A model generated the notes under the pieces. It was not told where the DNA came from and made no database searches. It worked only from the letters and a program-made list of their open reading frames with translations. The position numbers were made by a program, and so were the translations under genes. A stretch of DNA of 63,590 bases, the filler included, from Theionarchaea archaeon (lineage in GTDB: Archaea; Methanobacteriota_B; Thermococci; Methanofastidiosales; SZ-28-30): the NCBI GenBank assembly GCA_018992565.1. It is 6 parts of 6 records of this genome, joined end to end, with 100 filler letters (N's around TTAATTAATTAA, not from the genome) between each part and the next. Parts side by side here need not be neighbours in the genome. Positions count along the whole stretch, not along the records: positions 46,470 to 53,731 come from JACVGW010000108.1; 5 more parts are not named here. The stretch is one strand, 5' to 3'. This document shows, one piece after another, positions 31,035-61,150 of this stretch (position 1 is the first letter of the stretch; every line of letters starts with the position of its first letter).

Positions 31035-31134
31035 NNNNNNNNNNNNNNNNNNNNNNNNNNNNNNNNNNNNNNNNNNNNTTAATTAATTAANNNNNNNNNN
31101 NNNNNNNNNNNNNNNNNNNNNNNNNNNNNNNNNN
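31035..31134. other. Artificial contig linker (N44-TTAATTAATTAA-N44)
   Basis: Six-frame stop linker flanked by Ns. Confidence 0.97.
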
Positions 31135-38989: not shown

Positions 38990-39089
38990 NNNNNNNNNNN
39001 NNNNNNNNNNNNNNNNNNNNNNNNNNNNNNNNNTTAATTAATTAANNNNNNNNNNNNNNNNNNNNNNNNNNNNNNNNNNNNNNNNNNNN
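38990..39089. other. Artificial contig linker
   Basis: N44-TTAATTAATTAA-N44. Confidence 0.97.
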
Positions 39090-41162: not shown

Positions 41163-41830
41163 ATGGTAGAAATCGTCGAAAAAGTGGACTGCCCAAACTG
41201 TGGGGCTCCCCTCAAGATAAAGGCAGGGGAGATTGTTGTCACCTGCGAATACTGTGGGACTGCTGTCAACTTGAAAGCTGACAAACCCTTTGTTCTCAGC
41301 CATTCTATCATCCCAAATAAGTACTCNNNNNNNNNNNNNNNNNNNNNNNNNNNNNNNNNNNNNNNNNNNNNNNNNNNNNNNNNNNNNNNNNNNNNNNNNN
41401 NNNNNNNNNNNNNNNNNNNNNNNNNNCATTTCCCGAGAGAGAGTATAAGATACCTTTATCCGGGAAGAGTAGCTTCGACCTGTCTCTGGTGCAGGGAGAA
41501 TTTCTCAATGCAGAACTGGACGAGAATGAGGCGAGAACACTGGCAGAGAAAGGTATTGAGGCCAACCAGATGTACCGGATACGGGAGAAGGTAGATACTG
41601 TTGAAGAGAGTCAAACAGACATTGAGATCAAGGATAGTGAATTCCTGCATGCCCCCATCTGGTTCATAGAATACCAGTACCAGGGCAGTACATATCGCGT
41701 GCTGCTGGACGGGTGTACTGGTCAGATCATCACGGGCGATATCCCCTTTGGTGAAAGCACATTCCCCTGGGTATGGCTGGCTGCAGGAGCAGCTATTGTA
41801 ATAGGAATACTCCTGATTCTCCTGTTATGA
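41163..41830 (+). CDS. Double Zn-ribbon protein with C-terminal TM anchor, interrupted by a scaffold gap (41327-41426)
   Basis: CPNCGAPL...CEYCG before the gap; PIW..EY.YQG..Y..LLDG.TG.I..G..P plus TM helix after it. Confidence 0.75.
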
Positions 41831-44895: not shown

Positions 44896-44995
44896 NNNNN
44901 NNNNNNNNNNNNNNNNNNNNNNNNNNNNNNNNNNNNNNNNNNNNNNNNNNNNNNNNNNNNNNNNNNNNNNNNNNNNNNNNNNNNNNNNNNNNNNN

Positions 44996-46369: not shown

Positions 46370-46469
46370 NNNNNNNNNNNNNNNNNNNNNNNNNNNNNNN
46401 NNNNNNNNNNNNNTTAATTAATTAANNNNNNNNNNNNNNNNNNNNNNNNNNNNNNNNNNNNNNNNNNNN
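46370..46469. other. Artificial contig linker
   Basis: N44-TTAATTAATTAA-N44. Confidence 0.97.
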
Positions 46470-46510
46470 GCTGCGCGTGATAAAGGTATCTGCTGGACAA
46501 AGGTGAGGTC

Positions 46511-46954
46511 ATGATTGACAATTGGTTATTATGGCTGATTCTTGCTGGCATCCTCGCCATTGGAGAGATATTTACCGAAGGATTCTTCCTGTTCTGGTTT
46601 GCTGTGGGAGCAGCACTGGCGTGCGTTGCAGGATACCTTGGTGTCAGTCCAGTCTGGCAGTGGGGTCTCTTCCTGGTGAGCACTGGCATTCTGCTCTTGA
46701 TATCTCGACGGTTTGCCGATCATTTTACTGGCCAACAGCCTCCTGGAATAGGAGCTGATCGGTATGTCGGCAAGACTGGTATAGTCCTGGTGCGAGTGGA
46801 CAATGCCGGCAACGAGGGGCTGGTGAGAATTGGAAAGGAAGAATGGAGGGCGGACAGCGAAACAGGGGAAATAATACCCGAAGGCACGAAAGTGCATGCT
46901 GTCAGGCTGGATGGAACCCATCTGGTGGTTGCCCCCGCACGGGAGGATGAGTAA
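46511..46954 (+). CDS. Short NfeD (YbbJ-like) protein
   Basis: W.ILA...E....F...W, C-terminal OB fold G.V.I..EEWRA. Confidence 0.9.
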   Translation: MIDNWLLWLILAGILAIGEIFTEGFFLFWFAVGAALACVAGYLGVSPVWQWGLFLVSTGILLLISRRFADHFTGQQPPGIGADRYVGKTGIVLVRVDNAGNEGLVRIGKEEWRADSETGEIIPEGTKVHAVRLDGTHLVVAPAREDE

Positions 46955-47842
46955 ATGATAGAATATCTAGTATTGGGTGTAGTCCTATTTGTGGTTGCAG
47001 CGGCGGCTGTCAAGATTATCAGGCCGTGGCAGAAAGGACTCATTGAGAGACTGGGTAGATATCAGCGGACAGCAGACAGTGGACTGACAATGGTTTTCCC
47101 CTTTGTTGAACGGTTGATAAAAGTTGACATGCGAGAACAGGTGGTGGATGTCCCGCCTCAGGGCGTCATCACCAAGGATAACGTGGTTGTAGAAGTCGAT
47201 GCAGTCATTTACTATGAAGTCACTGACCCTGTAAAGGTCACGTACAATGTAGCCAATTTCTACACTGCAGCTACCAAACTGGCTCAGACGAATCTGAGGA
47301 ACCTGGTAGGAGATCTATCTCTGGATGAATCGCTTACCTCAAGAGAGGTTATCAACACCAAGCTGAGGCAGATTCTTGACGACGCTACTGACAAGTGGGG
47401 CGTCAGAGTATCCCGGGTGGAACTGCAGCGGATTGAACCCCCCAGGGATGTCACTGAAGCCATGCACCGCCAGATGAAGGCGGAACGAGACAAGAGAGCC
47501 ATGATTCTTGAGGCAGAAGGTCAGAAGCAGTCTGCGATCCTGAAGGCCGAAGGACAAGCAGAAGCCATCATGAGAGTGGCAGATGCAAACAAGTACGAGC
47601 GAATGACGGTGGCAGAGGGAGAGGCACGGGCTATAAATACTGTATTCGGTGCCATCCACAAAGGAAACCCTACCAATGATTTGATAGCCATCAAGTATCT
47701 GGAGGCTCTCCAGAAGATTGCAGACGGAAAAGCCTCAAAAGTATTTCTGCCATACGAAGCCAGTGGAATCCTGGCGAGCATTGCTGGAGTCGGAGAGCTT
47801 TTAAAAGAAAAGGTGTCCACTGAAGAACAAGAGAAGACTTAA
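46955..47842 (+). CDS. SPFH/band 7 protein (QmcA/paraslipin type)
   Basis: ERLGRY, VITKDNV, AQTNLRN.VG, QMKAER.KRA.ILEAEG. Confidence 0.93.
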
Positions 47843-48000
47843 TCTTTTTTCTCTTCTATTTTTTTGCCACGTTCCGCTTTTTGAGTGTCGTGAGATATCT
47901 CTCCATGAACAGGGGCGTGCAACCAGTACTCTCTTCATGCACTCCTTCTCTTCTGTCAGCACGTATCGAATATTTCATGGCCTGAAGTTCCTCCTTTTAA

Positions 48001-48045
48001 GAGAACCTTTATAAAGCCGAGGTTCCTTCTCTAAAAGAGAGGTGA
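48001..48045 (+). promoter_or_regulatory. tbp promoter and RBS
   Basis: GAGAACCTTTATAAA at 48001-48015; GAGGTGA at 48039-48045. Confidence 0.7.
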
Positions 48046-48049
48046 ATAG

Positions 48050-49003
48050 ATGGAGAACGTCAAGATACAAAACGTTGTTACATCGGCCACCCTGAATGAA
48101 ACCATTGATCTGGAACGAATAGCCACTGCTGTGGAAGATATTGAATACGAACCTGAGCAGTTTCCAGGTTTGGTCCTGCGGCTTGATGATCCGAAGACTG
48201 CTACCCTTGTGTTTGGTTCTGGAAAACTAGTGTGCACAGGGGCAAAGTCACCGGAGGAGTCCAGAAGGGCCATCTACAAGATCATTGATCTACTCAAGAA
48301 GGAAGACACCCCTATTCCTGATCCGGTGTGGCAGGTGCGATGGAGTGGTGACGGCGCTGAACACGCATTCGAGGGAACAATAACCGCTCAGTCCATCAAG
48401 AATGTAAAGTACGTAGATGAAGAGCAGAGAAAAAAAGAGCTCAAGAAAGACAAGATAAAAAACGATAAGAATACTATCACCTTTACAGGGTCTGCATTGG
48501 AGGGTCAAAGAGGTATTAATTTTGAAGCTGAAGGTGTTATTACCTTTGATATCAAGGTGGACTCCGAGTACAAGCCTGAATCTGTCTTTGTGGGTAAGAA
48601 TAAGACCAACCCTCCTGAAATCCCCTTTGAACTGAGAGAACAGCCCACGCTGTCGGGACTGGATTCCATAAATCCCGCTCGTGAACCTCGCCACATTCCC
48701 GGGGAAGATGCAGGGGTATTCGTGTGGTTCAGAGGACCTGAGATTGTTGTTCAAAATATTGTGGCTTCTGCAGACCTGGGTGTTGAATTAAACTTAGATG
48801 CAATTGTCTTTGGTCTTCCCAACTGTGAATATGAGCCTGAACAATTTCCAGGGCTAATCTACAGGTTGAAAAAACCCAAAGTAGTTCTCTTGTTGTTTGG
48901 TTCAGGTAAGATTGTGTGTACTGGTGCAAAGACTAGAGAAGACGTGGAGAATGCAATAGTTGAAGTCAGGAGAGCACTCAGAAAGATAGGCGTGAAAATG
49001 TGA
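48050..49003 (+). CDS. tbp: TATA-box-binding protein with a ~137-aa internal insertion
   Basis: Two complete TBP repeats (QNVV/QNIV, YEPEQFPGL, FGSGK.VCTGAK) separated by an unrelated segment at aa ~93-229. Confidence 0.95.
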   Translation: MENVKIQNVVTSATLNETIDLERIATAVEDIEYEPEQFPGLVLRLDDPKTATLVFGSGKLVCTGAKSPEESRRAIYKIIDLLKKEDTPIPDPVWQVRWSGDGAEHAFEGTITAQSIKNVKYVDEEQRKKELKKDKIKNDKNTITFTGSALEGQRGINFEAEGVITFDIKVDSEYKPESVFVGKNKTNPPEIPFELREQPTLSGLDSINPAREPRHIPGEDAGVFVWFRGPEIVVQNIVASADLGVELNLDAIVFGLPNCEYEPEQFPGLIYRLKKPKVVLLLFGSGKIVCTGAKTREDVENAIVEVRRALRKIGVKM

Positions 49004-49007
49004 TCGG

Positions 49008-49727
49008 ATGCAGATACCGTATGCATTCATAGGAAAACTCCTCATTTTCTCTCTTGTTTTCCTTTTCATTGCTGCAGCTATTTCGCTGGTGCTGGGATTC
49101 ATTTTACTGCGAAAAGGAGTCATGATTTTACCCAGATTCGTCCTGTATGTTATCGACAGTCTGTATTTTCTGCTGAAGAAGCTAGTCCGCCTTGTGGGAC
49201 TGAGTGAACGGTTTGTTGACGAAATAGGTATTGAAATACGCAACAGAACCTATGAGAAAGGATTCACCAAATCACGAGCAGACGGAAGGATTCTGGTCTT
49301 CCCTCAGTGCCTTCGCAGCCCCAAGTGTCCTGGTCCTCTGACCCAGTACGGGATTCAATGCAAGATGTGCGGACAGTGTGTCATAGGGGACTTGAAGAAG
49401 AAAGCGGAAGCTGTGGGGTATAAGGTGTACATTGTACCAGGAGGAAGTTTTGTAAAGCGTATCGCGAAAAAAGACAGGCCCACAGGAGCTCTGGGTGTGG
49501 CCTGTGGATATGAGCTCAACTATAGTATGATGGAGATTTCAGCTCTCTGCCCCGTACAGGGTGTTCCTCTCTTAAAAGATGGATGCTACTGCACCAAAGT
49601 GGATGAAGAACTGGTTCTGGAAAAGCTGTTGCTGGGCATCACCGAGACATCTGCAGAAAGAGAAGAACCTGAGGAAGAAGGAAGAGAAGAGGGAGAGAGG
49701 CACAAGGCTCCCAAGGTGACAGTATGA
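49008..49727 (+). CDS. DUF116 family protein
   Basis: N-terminal TM, PQCLR, C..CGQC.IG, VPGGS, GVAC..EL, GC. Confidence 0.88.
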   Translation: MQIPYAFIGKLLIFSLVFLFIAAAISLVLGFILLRKGVMILPRFVLYVIDSLYFLLKKLVRLVGLSERFVDEIGIEIRNRTYEKGFTKSRADGRILVFPQCLRSPKCPGPLTQYGIQCKMCGQCVIGDLKKKAEAVGYKVYIVPGGSFVKRIAKKDRPTGALGVACGYELNYSMMEISALCPVQGVPLLKDGCYCTKVDEELVLEKLLLGITETSAEREEPEEEGREEGERHKAPKVTV

Positions 49728-50509
49728 CGGTGATAACTGATAACCACATGCACCTGGACAAGAAAGGGTTATACCTGGAGGCTGTGCACCAGTTCAAGAG
49801 AGCGGGAGGAGGACGGATTATCCTGGTTCAGAAACCAGGGTTTCCCCAGACTATAGAAGAATTTGTACAGCAGGTTGAACAGACACTGACCATGTGTCAG
49901 GAAGTGAGGCAAATTGTGGAATGTTACCCTGTGGTGGGGTTGCATCCGGCTGAATTTGACAGGTTGTTCAACAAGGGGAAAGAGGACGTATGTTATCAGG
50001 CCCTGGATACTGTAGAATTGTATATACAGGAAAAAAAGGTTGTGGGTATGGGAGAATTCGGGAGACCACATTATCCTGTCTCAGAGCAGACCTATCAGGC
50101 TTCCCATGAATACATGATCCAAGCGTTGATACGTTCCCGGGAACTTGACTGTCCCATCCAGCTGCACACTGAATCACTGGATAGTGCTGGCATTGAAGCT
50201 CTTGACAGATTGATTAAGGAACTGGGCTGCTCACGCGTTATTAAGCATTTTGCTCCTCCCATTCCTGAGTATGACAGCATGACCCCTTCCATTCTGGCCA
50301 CTGAGTCCAATATCACCCAGGCTGTAACCTCCGGGATGAAGTTCTTCATGGAGACTGATTACATAGATGACCCACGGAGACCGGGTGCAGTGCTGGGTCC
50401 AAAGACTGTTCCCAGGACCACATTGAAGCTTCTGGCTGAAGGCGTTCTCACTGAGGACATGGTGGTCCGAATCCACGACCAGGATATACCCTCGCTGTAC
50501 AACCTGTGA
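49724..50509 (+). CDS. TatD-related metal-dependent hydrolase
   Basis: DNHMH, GLHPAE, GEFGRPHY, QLHTE, METDYIDDPRRPGAVLGP. Confidence 0.9.
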   Translation: MTVITDNHMHLDKKGLYLEAVHQFKRAGGGRIILVQKPGFPQTIEEFVQQVEQTLTMCQEVRQIVECYPVVGLHPAEFDRLFNKGKEDVCYQALDTVELYIQEKKVVGMGEFGRPHYPVSEQTYQASHEYMIQALIRSRELDCPIQLHTESLDSAGIEALDRLIKELGCSRVIKHFAPPIPEYDSMTPSILATESNITQAVTSGMKFFMETDYIDDPRRPGAVLGPKTVPRTTLKLLAEGVLTEDMVVRIHDQDIPSLYNL

Positions 50510-50510
50510 A

Positions 50511-51422
50511 CTAGCCCAGGGAAATTACCACGGTCGCACTGGGTCCCAGTCCTGTGGCAGTCTTGGCACTGATGGCAACCATGAAGTCCCCTGAATTGAG
50601 GATACACTTGCCGTAAGAATCGCCCGGCTCATCCCAGTCTTTGGCAAATACTTCGCTCATGTCCAGTCGATACACTCCTTCATTGAACTTCGCGGGATAC
50701 ACGATGGCCGAACACGAATACGTGCATCCGCTCCCGGATGTGAAGGTCCATTCAACATAAAAGTATTCTACAGGAAATGGATACGTTGTATGAAAGTAGA
50801 TGTCTGCATACTGGACAGGATCCACTCCAAGAGAGAAGGTCATGGGCGGAGTATCAATAATGACTTCTGGCTGGCTGGAGATGGGAGACTCTTCATCAGT
50901 TGACCCTGCAGCATCCTCACCTCCCGGAAACAAGGAAATGACACTTCCACGTTCATTGTTCTTGACAACTCTGATGTAGTGCCATGGACTCTGGGCTCCA
51001 GATCCGTCAAAAGCCATGATACCAATAGTGTGGATGCCATCGCGCAGCCCTGGAGATGTCCAGGTACCTGCACAGCCCTCTGATGTGATGGTGGTGGTGG
51101 TCATATATCCTTCCATGACATATAAGGAGGGATCTTCCAGAAAATTCGCAGGCCGGACTCTTCGATAGGTATAGGAAATGTAGAAACTCAAATCCTGGTT
51201 AGGACACTCGAATCCTGATGCGTAGAACTCCACGAGAAGGGGAGCACCAGAAAAAGTTGCATATCGCTGGCCTGAAAGCGTAATATTCTGCAAAACCGGT
51301 GGTCTACTATCCGGCTGGCTGATGCCCAGGATATTTATTGTGTATGTTCTGGGCTGGCTGTAGGTTGGGGCTAGCAGTAGAAGCCCTACCAACACAAGGA
51401 TTGGAACTGTTCTCTGTATCAT
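50511..51422 (-). CDS. Secreted hypothetical protein
   Basis: GGAGGT RBS, signal peptide, Ig-like DGIHT..AFD..G segment, S/P/E-rich linker. Confidence 0.7.
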   Translation of the reverse strand: MIQRTVPILVLVGLLLLAPTYSQPRTYTINILGISQPDSRPPVLQNITLSGQRYATFSGAPLLVEFYASGFECPNQDLSFYISYTYRRVRPANFLEDPSLYVMEGYMTTTTITSEGCAGTWTSPGLRDGIHTIGIMAFDGSGAQSPWHYIRVVKNNERGSVISLFPGGEDAAGSTDEESPISSQPEVIIDTPPMTFSLGVDPVQYADIYFHTTYPFPVEYFYVEWTFTSGSGCTYSCSAIVYPAKFNEGVYRLDMSEVFAKDWDEPGDSYGKCILNSGDFMVAISAKTATGLGPSATVVISLG

Positions 51423-51660
51423 TTTTACCTCCTACCACAATAGTATCTTTCCTGAGGTATATAAAGATTGCGGTACTGCTTCCTGTAGAGTCGCGATATT
51501 GTTTCACGGACTCATCCGTGGACAATACGTATTATCAGACCAGATATATACTACGCCCAAGAAAAGACATGAGAACTTCAACAGAAAAATAGAAGAAGTG
51601 GCTTTCCCGAAAAGGCGGACAACCAGGCTGTTCAGTACTGCTGGTTCTTGCCTCCGAAAA

Positions 51661-51822
51661 TCATGTAAGCTTTTCTGCTTCATCAATAAGCATTACAGGT
51701 ATACCGTCCCGCACGGGATACGCCAGCTTGCAGGCATCACAAATCAGTCTGTCTCCCTCCAACCTGATATCTCCCTTGCACTTGGGACAGGCCAGAATCT
51801 CAAGCAGTTTTTCATCAATCAT
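51661..51822 (-). CDS. trm112: Trm112 methyltransferase activator (not in ORF track)
   Basis: [53 protein letters not shown]. Confidence 0.93.
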
Positions 51823-51911
51823 GGACTTTCTATGGCATGATCCCTTAAAAGATTTTGCAGGTTCACTTGAAAAAGAGTACTCTCACCCCAGTGGAAAGAA
51901 ATCTCTTCTTT

Positions 51912-52556
51912 TCATCCCACGAGCAGGGTGATCCAGGCATCCAGCCCTTCGCCCGTCTTGCAACTGGTCTTGATAGCTTCAATCCTGGGATTGATGCGCC
52001 TTGCATCCCCAATCATCTTATCGGGATCAGCGTCCACAAACTGTGCAATGTCGATCTTGTTCACCACTGCGGCATCTGAAATTCGGAATATCATAGGATG
52101 TTTGGCGATTGTATCATCACCCTCTGTCACAGAGACCACCACGATCCGCTTGTGCTCTCCCAGGACAAAATCTGAAGGACATATCAAGTTACCTACATTC
52201 TCAATAAACAGAAGATCAATATTGTGTAGGTTTATCTTCTCCAGTGCATGTCCCACCATATGGGCATCTAAATGGCATTCTTTTCCCGTGTTGAGAGGCA
52301 CAGTCAAAGCACCTTTCTTCTCAAATCGTTGCGCATCATAGCGTGCAATGACATCTCCAGCAAAAACAGCACACTTATACTGTCCTTCCAGACGTTCAAT
52401 AGCATGTTCGATAAGCATGGTCTTGCCTGAGCCAATGGCTCCCATAATACTAAACGCTCTCACATCATGATTATCAAGGAGTTCTCTATTCCTCAGGGCA
52501 AGTTCTTCATTCTTCTGAATCAGATCTGCCCCGATGGTAACTTCGGTGAAGTGCAT
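51912..52556 (-). CDS. hypB: Hydrogenase nickel-insertion GTPase HypB
   Basis: GSGKT, ECHLDAHM, IENVGNLICP, EGDD...KHP, NKID. Confidence 0.95.
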   Translation of the reverse strand: MHFTEVTIGADLIQKNEELALRNRELLDNHDVRAFSIMGAIGSGKTMLIEHAIERLEGQYKCAVFAGDVIARYDAQRFEKKGALTVPLNTGKECHLDAHMVGHALEKINLHNIDLLFIENVGNLICPSDFVLGEHKRIVVVSVTEGDDTIAKHPMIFRISDAAVVNKIDIAQFVDADPDKMIGDARRINPRIEAIKTSCKTGEGLDAWITLLVG

Positions 52557-52878
52557 ACTGTAAAGAATATAGATGGGTTTAAAAGCTTTTGGGTAACACG
52601 AATTCCAAGTTTCGTGACATCAAAAAACCATTTCCCTGTTGAGACGATACTATCAACCCAAAATCCCAAGAAAATTCTGGACATCTCAGCTCAAGAAGAA
52701 AGATTCATAAGGAAAAGGATTCTCTTAGGACATAGAGGTAGTATGGAAAGAGTCTTGGAAAGGTGGAACCCCTGTAAGGACTGTCAATTCCTGAGTTGAC
52801 CAGGTACACGAAGAATTCGTGGTGACATCAAAAACAGGGAGATTCTTGTTTCAAGATATCCTGAAAGAGGTGGGAAAA

Positions 52879-53731
52879 ATGTGGGAGCGCATCATTCTTG
52901 ACGGACTCAAGAAGCAAGACGAACTTGATTTAGAAAAAGCGGCCAGAGAGGCCCCCGATGAAGAAAAAGCTGAGATTTTACGGAATCTTCCCAAGCACAT
53001 CCAAGAGATCACTAAGAACCCAGAGGAGTACCCGGATGTCATTTCCCTTCTATGTCTCCACATGGTTGCCATGAAGGGGGAGCTTTTTGCCAGTTATTCC
53101 CCCAAAGAGCAACCTATCATTCTCGAGAATGGAGCATACGCTTCACTCAAGGCTGTTTCTCTTGCAGAAAAGCTAGGGGATAGAGAATTGAAAGCTCTGT
53201 ATTTCGGAATGGCTGGAAACGCATTCTTCAGAATTCGGAGACCAGTGGAAGCAGAAAAGGCCTACAGGGAAGCCCTGAACGTATACCAGGACCTTGCAAG
53301 AGAAACTCCAAGGCACAGACTCAGCGTTGTCATAACGCTTGACAACATCGGAACCTTCTATTGCAGTATGGGAAGGCTTTCTGAAGCCGAAGGAATGTAT
53401 AATGAATCTTTGAAAACCATGCGAGAGATCGAGAAGGACATGCCCGACCTACGTTCTCATACGGCTACCACGTTGAACAACCTCGGGGACTTCTATAAAA
53501 ATACAGGGAAGTCCTTTGAGGCAGAAAATGCATACAAAGAAGCCTTGGAGACAAGAAAGCAGCTTTCAAAAGAGAATGGGAATCCAGAAATGAATGAACC
53601 TGTTGCAGCGACCCTGAACTGCCTTGGGCTTCTCTACTTCGATATGGCAAAGTTTTCTGAAGCACTGGAAAAGTACAAAGAAGCACTGAAAATGTATAAG
53701 CAGCTTGAAAGCGATAAAAGAAGTCAGACAT
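52879..53731 (+). CDS. TPR-repeat protein (3'-partial)
   Basis: Repeated TLNNLG..Y...G...EAE..Y.EAL; GAGGTG RBS. Confidence 0.88.
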
Positions 53732-53831
53732 NNNNNNNNNNNNNNNNNNNNNNNNNNNNNNNNNNNNNNNNNNNNTTAATTAATTAANNNNNNNNNNNNN
53801 NNNNNNNNNNNNNNNNNNNNNNNNNNNNNNN
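53732..53831. other. Artificial contig linker
   Basis: N44-TTAATTAATTAA-N44. Confidence 0.97.
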
Positions 53832-61050: not shown

Positions 61051-61150
61051 NNNNNNNNNNNNNNNNNNNNNNNNNNNNNNNNNNNNNNNNNNNNTTAATT
61101 AATTAANNNNNNNNNNNNNNNNNNNNNNNNNNNNNNNNNNNNNNNNNNNN
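61051..61150. other. Artificial contig linker
   Basis: N44-TTAATTAATTAA-N44. Confidence 0.97.

Follow-up and report, generated by a model that had tools for sequence, protein, structure and literature searches.

The window analysed here is a stretch of 63,590 nucleotides (nt) from a Theionarchaea archaeon (assembly GCA_018992565.1). This work deals with one of its contigs, window positions 46470-53731 (G000:C83, 7.3 kb), which carries the tbp gene for the TATA-binding protein (TBP). TBP ranks with the most strongly conserved archaeal and eukaryotic proteins; its two repeats form a saddle and are normally connected by a linker of about 10 residues. According to the list of open reading frames (ORFs) and the translation, the gene is one ORF that encodes 317 amino acids (aa) with no stop inside. 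Aligned with two TBPs without an insert (P0118 and P0119), the protein displays an extra segment of exactly 137 residues, aa 93-229 (48326-48736), the same boundaries as proposed in an earlier reading made from the DNA alone (the sequence-only reading). We confirmed that a TBP with a 137-aa insert between two intact repeats is a genuine observation. The coordinates of its parts are given in Table 1.

Both halves of the protein are typical of TBP. Two separate stretches of the protein matched the Pfam family PF00352 (E 1.6e-64; score 214 bits, cut-off 22.9), in agreement with the earlier claim that both repeats are intact, and when the genome was searched with the same family each repeat of the 317-aa protein reached 108-111 bits. 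From the ten NCBIfam PRK00394 TBP models, one scored over its curated cut-off (NF001593, 191.8 vs 181 bits) and nine remained under theirs (179-225 vs 255-347 bits), which is expected because the insert splits the match in two. The translation contains the QN.V motif in both repeats (IQNVV at aa 6-10 and VQNIV at aa 234-238) as well as EQFPGL (aa 36-41 and 264-269), residues that we take to be the DNA-contact and stirrup motifs of solved TBP-DNA structures. The insert is flanked by '..TPIPDP' before and 'PEIVVQNIV..' after it, and its base composition is ordinary, with a GC content of 0.467 vs 0.444 in the core. No Pfam family was found in the segment 48317-48745 at E<=1, no NCBIfam family in the 137-aa insert (P0002) at E<=10, and no match of the insert alone to PDB sequences at E<=10.

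Table 1. Parts of the tbp gene and of its upstream region (positions along the window, aa along the 317-aa protein).
Feature	Position	Strand	Basis and remarks
tbp gene	48050..49003	+	317 codons and stop; PF00352 match; 97 % identical 317-aa orthologue in G001
TBP repeat 1 (aa 1-92)	48050..48325	+	Pfam and NCBIfam stretches; at its end lie helix H2 and EDTPIPDP, a remnant of the native linker
Insert, main body (aa 93-198)	48326..48643	+	Putative strand 2 to last strand of an unnamed beta-sandwich repeat domain
Mixed-charge loop VDEEQRKKELKKDKIKNDKN (aa 122-141)	48413..48472	+	Alignment, charge count, predicted local distance difference test (pLDDT)
Inter-repeat-linker equivalent (aa 199-211)	48644..48682	+	Between both hidden Markov model (HMM) matches; colinear with the linkers of P0004, P0005 and P0006
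Insert, last part (aa 212-229)	48683..48736	+	EPRHIPGEDAGVFVWFRG is the putative equivalent of native strand 1; HMM match and AlphaFold2 strand
TBP repeat 2 (aa 230-317)	48737..49000	+	Pfam stretch 232-312; strand S1' (PEIVVQNIVASA) starts 2 residues past the insert
Candidate TATA box TTTATAAA	48008..48015	+	Read from sequence; preceded by a purine-rich stretch (48000-48007)
Shine-Dalgarno-like GGTGA	48041..48045	+	Read from sequence; 4 nt 5' of the ATG; kept in G001

In a comparison of 41 related genomes, the insert was present in all three genomes of the genus (G000, to which the contig belongs, G001 and G002). G001 encodes a full 317-aa orthologue with 97 % identity, and G002 a fragment at a contig edge (aa 205-317, 98 % identity) that holds the last 25 residues of the insert. 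In the other matching genomes the TBP frame spans 156-210 aa with the repeats adjacent, the exception being an 890-aa open frame in G032. The TBP of the sister genus (P0118 from G003, 180 aa) has no insert, nor does P0119 (189 aa), and the repeats of our protein are 86-91 % identical to theirs by best local alignment. A word-indexed protein search recovered the same architecture in at least 18 protein clusters of 314-317 aa originating from NCBI, JGI, ENA and Logan, several of them labelled 'Theionarchaea archaeon'. The 90 % cluster of our protein has 14 members from dozens of contigs; the insert sequence is in all of them, and two are truncated gene calls. These proteins are on record as 'TATA-box-binding protein' or 'hypothetical protein'. 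Sampled 31-mers of window positions 47950-49050 were all present in 18 DNA runs from 7 studies, which are metagenomes of marine sediment, estuary, mangrove and soil, and some of which may be the source of the assembly. When DNA runs were aligned to the stretch, X8 gave no cover and X14 a single 32-nt piece. Contigs from two metatranscriptome libraries matched the gene free of mismatches in three places, one of them within the insert (48506-48715), the others at 48722-48918 and 48713-48950.

Using PF00352 we found no second TBP in G000 (88 % complete), G001 (91 %) or G002 (84 %), and G000 contains two TFB genes. Of the two checks proposed in the sequence-only reading, the one for relatives with the insert gave G001, G002 and the 18 or more clusters, and the one for a normal tbp beside it found none in the three incomplete genomes. 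The gene is apparently the working and only TBP of this uncultured sediment archaeon. Among the best 120 of 7999 TBP relatives, no other TBP carries an insert in the linker; the other long forms inspected there either consist of three TBP repeats or end in an acidic tail.

To our search with the insert alone (phmmer, 1.84 billion cluster representatives, E<=1e-3) 83 homologues responded. One of them is another 317-aa TBP and the rest are proteins of 81-2793 aa, which contain a single copy or 2-7 copies in tandem. The best matches were P0004 (981 aa, 3 copies, E 1.2e-36), P0005 (1548 aa, 7 copies) and P0006 (1127 aa, 4 copies), and altogether the best matches outside TBP, with 3-7 tandem copies, lie between E 1e-36 and 7e-34 at 30-34 % identity. 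Partner domains recognised by Pfam include NHL propellers (P0004-P0006), FG-GAP/ASPIC (P0011, P0018), GH8 (P0013, P0016, P0022), GDSL lipase together with He_PIG, PhoD and TPR, while P0020 consists of the single domain. Profile searching added 14 further proteins of arylsulfatase type (P0220-P0233, about 600 aa) that end with a copy of the domain. Inspected by eye, the N-termini of P0004, P0020, P0040 and P0220 are hydrophobic and similar to signal peptides. Among the carriers, the PEP-CTERM ScyF model was matched below its cut-off and a diheme cytochrome model in a fragmentary way. Judging from partner domains such as these, the carriers seem to be bacterial. The resemblance to a beta-rich secreted-protein domain, which had been proposed in the sequence-only reading, is borne out by these phmmer matches and by the company that the domain keeps.

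An HMM built from 58 units in native order matched the insert with E 3.7e-33, and the insert retains every position that is the same in 90 % or more of the alignment rows (W2, F15, G17, D42, G63, F66, D79, G90, P96, P100 and F101). The analysis points to a repeat domain that is widespread (P0004-P0085, 83 representative clusters) and, judged by sequence, lacks an entry in Pfam, NCBIfam and PDB. The only Pfam rows on it were sub-threshold matches of IMP2_N and DUF5026, in the region of the hairpin of strand 1 and strand 2, and the sole match of profile A4 among PDB sequences was a ribosomal protein with E 0.75. We consider the family a candidate for a new family definition.

Closer to the host, P0002 recovered only the tbp gene itself from its own genome at E<=10, and among 133 genomes of the class nothing at E<0.001 outside the genus (g1), the weak rows being short or interrupted by stops. 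Profile A1, run against its own genome and the same 133, placed the domain part in genus g1 only. The other 78 genome matches of this profile fall on positions 205-298, which are TBP columns derived from TBP rows, and because such columns entered the profile it is a weak test for distant copies.

The order of the strands differs between the insert and the native domain. Members with a single domain, as well as first units of arrays, begin with a 'DAGYFLW'-type strand followed by a short turn and 'WHLRWSGDG...', and end at '...IPFxL'. The TBP insert starts with 'VWQVRWSGDG' and ends with 'GEDAGVFVWFRG'. At least 25 homologues have, directly ahead of the segment that matches insert residues 2-103, a short one that matches residues ~111-135; an array stops, in its last unit, at insert residue ~103, a few residues from the C-terminus of the protein, and internal units are colinear with insert residues 2-134. 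The native-order HMM hits our TBP in swapped order, its positions 24-125 on aa 93-198 and positions 4-19 on aa 212-227, the latter aligning kPeykkgedlgyfiwq of the model with EPRHIPGEDAGVFVWF, and the order was swapped in 4 of 4 TBPs tested. The period of the repeats in P0004-P0006 is 133-146 aa, compared with 137 aa for the insert. As far as the order of matching segments can tell, this confirms the insert as a circular permutant of the domain that starts with strand 2 and ends with strand 1; what had been a guess about permuted order in the sequence-only reading now has the swapped HMM matches and the domain tables of the homologues behind it. The copies fused to sulfatases (P0220-P0233) are permuted as well, running from strand 2 to the last strand, the linker and strand 1, and since they are terminal domains the permuted order is viable on its own. 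The two end strands of the insert, which form a hairpin in the native domain, are probably adjacent in space.

We predicted the structure with AlphaFold2 for the insert alone (alignment of 55 rows) and for the full protein (77 rows). The isolated insert was modelled with a mean pLDDT of 90.8 and a predicted template modelling score (pTM) of 0.85 and contains ten strands, including residues 2-7 and 130-135, so that it is confidently predicted to fold as a beta-sandwich. For the full protein the pLDDT was 89.2, falling below 50 only at aa 201-205, and the pTM of 0.77 for two domains suggests that their relative placement is defined. In this model repeat 1 has strands within aa 5-65 and a helix at 68-84, and the insert strand 222-228 leads almost directly to the TBP strand S1' (231-242). 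Foldseek of the insert model found nothing in PDB at E<=1e-3 (best value 0.3), and the ESM Atlas offered no usable match for the insert. The best structural neighbour by VIA-align was the adhesin CLIPPER domain of 9ifr with Z 6.3 (root-mean-square deviation, rmsd, 3.0 over 85 aligned residues), followed by the collagen-binding N2 domains of 3v10 (Z 6.1, rmsd 3.3) and 2f6a (Z 5.7, rmsd 3.5), each with 93 aligned residues. N2 domains, pilins, cohesins and C2 domains scored Z 4.5-6.1, numerous sandwiches unrelated to each other reached Z 5-6, and the tool regards values below 8 as common arrangements.

The two species represented by G000 and G001 are separated by 60 synonymous codon differences without a change of amino acid over the 180 codons of the core, and by 30 synonymous and 9 non-synonymous differences over the 137 codons of the insert. 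The omega values after Nei and Gojobori for this pair are 0.065 for the insert and 0.01 for the core, with synonymous divergence (dS) of 0.49 and 0.76, respectively. Conservation among orthologues was evaluated on 27 distinct sequences of 317 aa, entries of 182, 227, 314 and 316 aa being left out. Invariant sites make up 170 of 180 in the core and 53 of 137 in the insert, and pairwise identity ranges between 95 and 100 % (mean 98 %) and between 65 and 100 % (mean 78 %), respectively. There is no indel among the 27, and one cluster of 316 aa lacks a single residue in the charged loop. These data show purifying selection on core and insert alike. The observation is far beyond chance: 27 distinct sequences have the 317-aa architecture free of indels, and the insert has 83 homologues at E<=1e-3. 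Some residues are invariant in the TBP inserts and variable in the wider family, namely EAEG after F66, LREQPTLS (aa 195-202) and PR; the PTLS in the segment equivalent to the inter-repeat linker is invariant among the orthologues. EAEG, LREQPTLS and PR are candidate interface residues, facing either the core of TBP or some partner.

Regarding the upstream region, about 70 nt 5' of the ATG are nearly identical in G000 and G001, although the synonymous sites of tbp itself have diverged, and farther upstream the two sequences are diverged too. This block includes both TTTATAAA, which is probably the TATA box of the promoter, and GGTGA, and its conservation across the two species fits the earlier statement that the gene has a normal promoter and ribosome-binding site. 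Around the TATA box we noticed an imperfect direct repeat of 17 nt (47984-48000 and 48019-48035, 76 % identical, 35 nt apart) and inverted arms of 16 nt (47990-48005 and 48027-48042, 81 % complementary). The whole block of about 70 nt, with the repeats and arms at 47984-48042 in it, may serve as an operator that regulates tbp.

The neighbours of tbp are a Band_7/SPFH gene upstream (46955-47842) and, downstream, genes for a DUF116 protein (49008-49727) and a TatD-type hydrolase (49724-50509). The DUF116 gene starts 5 nt past the tbp stop and is overlapped by the TatD-type gene by 4 nt. The same gene order is found in G001, on a much longer contig. Runs of N in the window (31035-31134, 38990-39089, 41327-41426, 44896-44995, 46370-46469, 53732-53831 and 61051-61150) are joints between contigs of the metagenome-assembled genome (MAG), and therefore the gene neighbourhood cannot be read across them.

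Unusual TBPs of other kinds were encountered as well. Five TBP clusters of 272-289 aa (P0120, P0121, P0122, P0123 and P0126) have three TBP repeats, each on 1 contig, and may be real triplications or errors of assembly in repeated sequence. A scan of contigs with the whole protein, from which the lineage of the window was left out, was dominated by the generic YEPEQFPG pattern. It returned matches of 1.07-1.12 kb on L044 and L059 that turned out to be two adjacent paralogous TBP genes each, and a match of 789 nt on L061 that is a single TBP of 187 aa. Both pairs are on MAG contigs of Thermoplasmata (L044, 2968-4074, 181 and 182 aa; L059, 587-1686, 186 and 183 aa), and in them the upstream copy is more divergent.

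Judged by titles and the beginnings of abstracts, a full-text literature search produced no published TBP with a domain in the linker between its repeats. Among the matches listed for Theionarchaea, none concerned transcription factors, and the passages on insertion, linker and domain architecture in PMC7221094 and PMC3597702 mention no such insert. The arrangement seems to be new for TBP, as we could not find it described in the literature.

As a whole, the data are best explained, with a probability of roughly 0.8, by a gene that is the sole working TBP of its host and has captured a permuted domain of one repeat period. In the ancestor of the genus, a 137-residue piece of a tandemly repeated beta-sandwich would have entered the TBP linker in frame, at the short connection from helix H2 of repeat 1 to strand S1' of repeat 2. 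The captured piece would correspond to exactly one period, from strand 2 of one unit through strand 1 of the next, with the array cut within the hairpin of strands 1 and 2, and aa 199-211 would be the former linker between two repeats. Capture of one period of a tandem array would be the simplest origin of the insert, and its gain was probably recent, as P0118 of the sister genus and P0119 have adjacent repeats. The ends of the insert should be close together because they are neighbouring strands of a hairpin, which would allow the domain to fold independently within TBP, projecting from it as a beta-sandwich of its own that does not force the halves of TBP apart. The protein very probably still does the general job of a TBP.

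Several points weigh against this reading. A second TBP in the genus could still exist, because all the genomes are incomplete MAGs. The strand-1 match is weak when taken alone, with 1.1-3.7 bits and a conditional E of 0.087 at 1.1 bits. The adjacency of the ends and the position of the insert relative to DNA and TFB are inferred and not measured. The omega values come from a single species pair, and the purifying selection on the insert could merely reflect the need to fold within an essential protein. Two of the RNA contigs (48722-48918 and 48713-48950) reach over the 3' junction with no more than 15 and 24 nt, respectively, inside the insert, less than the 31 nt that the rule of the tool asks for, the 5' junction has no RNA cover, and carry-over of DNA into the libraries is possible. 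The loop VDEEQRKKELKKDKIKNDKN, which the sequence-only reading had called a Lys-rich patch, is not consistently basic: it is a mixture of K, E and D with a net charge of +2, in P0115 it has -4, and the whole insert has -3, so that this part of the earlier description is not supported. Finally, none of our results indicates a partner, a ligand or a DNA contact, and the ligand-binding or interaction module of the sequence-only reading is a hypothesis.

The odds are about even that selection maintains the insert for something more than its being tolerated and able to fold. A serious candidate, to which we would give somewhat less than even odds, is that it is a tolerated passenger, captured in frame by chance, fixed, and adding nothing to transcription. 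It would persist only because it is unlikely to be deleted cleanly and because an essential protein would be disabled if the insert misfolded. The much faster evolution of the insert than of the core (mean identity 78 vs 98 %, invariant sites 53 of 137 vs 170 of 180) is what such a passenger would show, its retained family positions fit selection for folding alone, and no partner or ligand is indicated. Against this, an omega of 0.065 is low for an insert without function, EAEG and LREQPTLS are invariant where the wider family varies, and the 27 orthologues are without indels, with only one loop residue missing from the 316-aa cluster.

If there is such a reason, the most likely one is that the insert offers a surface for protein docking or steric effects at the central edge of the saddle, an option that we put forward tentatively. 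The insertion point is 7 residues ahead of the Asn of QNIV in strand S1', and this Asn presumably contacts the centre of the TATA box, as in solved TBP-DNA complexes; the expected place of the domain is therefore the central long edge of the TBP saddle. A rigidly held permuted beta-sandwich in this place could offer a lineage-specific partner of the sole TBP a surface for docking or gating, which is possible and still rather doubtful. Sensing of a ligand by the insert is less likely than docking and, in our view, quite improbable. An added contact with DNA through the charged loop, altering the affinity to the TATA box or the preference for its flanks, is also less likely than docking, and we consider it unlikely. 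The insertion 7 residues before the Asn which we assume to touch the TATA centre would be suitable for it, and the loop (mean pLDDT about 75) exceeds that of most of the family by about 6 residues, with a gap of 5-6 residues in most homologues outside TBP. However, the charge of the loop (+2, and -4 in P0115) and of the insert (-3) is not consistently basic, which disfavours a simple DNA-binding role.

It is very improbable that the insert is removed, as an intein, an intron or by proteolysis, leaving an ordinary mature TBP. Its position between two complete repeats, and nothing else, speaks for removal. Inteins begin with Cys, Ser or Thr and end with His-Asn followed by Cys, Ser or Thr, whereas the insert has Val first, RG last and Pro next, and no Hint, intein or homing-endonuclease family was detected (Pfam E<=1, NCBIfam E<=10), so the absence of intein hallmarks noticed previously holds. 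The homology of the insert to an ordinary structural domain moreover extends along its length, its amino-acid sequence is under constraint, and the contigs from the RNA libraries contain it and run into repeat 2, which is a weak argument. Least credible of all is that the gene is an artefact of assembly or binning, or a decaying extra copy with the real TBP elsewhere: it does lie on a 7.3-kb contig in a window of MAG contigs joined by N runs, from genomes 84-91 % complete, but independent assemblies from several sources yield the same 317-aa protein, the Band_7, DUF116 and TatD neighbours are the same on the much longer contig of G001, the core differs by 60 synonymous changes and in 0 amino acids, and searches of the three genomes brought up no further TBP.

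Our preferred reading, a sole working TBP with one captured period of a permuted domain, would mean that the linker site tolerates large additions, and it could be used as a natural experiment to learn which surfaces of TBP stay free in the initiation complex of archaea. It would be a clean natural case of circular permutation enabling the insertion of a domain, by one period from a tandem array, and of a domain of secreted-protein type reused in a cytoplasmic DNA-binding factor. Should the docking surface be real, the TBP that reads every promoter of the cell would have an additional regulatory handle, and this would parallel, independently and in archaea, the TAFs, NC2 and Mot1 that surround TBP in eukaryotes.

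Compared with known systems, the insert as modelled shares with the immunoglobulin-like sandwiches of adhesins, pilins and cohesins only the general beta-sandwich fold; there is no sequence similarity and no function can be inferred from it. With the unnamed repeat domain it has in common W..RW, F.G, G..F, FD...D, G and NP...PF. The D.G.D motif common in the repeat domain is replaced by RGINF in the TBP insert, the charged loop is longer, and the setting is a cytoplasmic DNA-binding protein without a signal peptide. The native order, with strand 1 before strand 2, is absent from the insert, which is permuted relative to the single-domain and first-in-array copies. As in other archaeal TBPs, there are two repeats, EYEPEQFPGL, GSGK.VCTGAK and QN(V/I)V at the start of each repeat, whereas here a folded domain of 137 aa replaces the middle of the linker of about 10 residues. 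Domain insertion with circular permutation by way of tandem duplication is a general evolutionary mechanism, and the present case would follow it in that a window of one period gives a permuted domain whose ends meet, as an inserted domain needs; the recipient, in this case, is a universal basal transcription factor.

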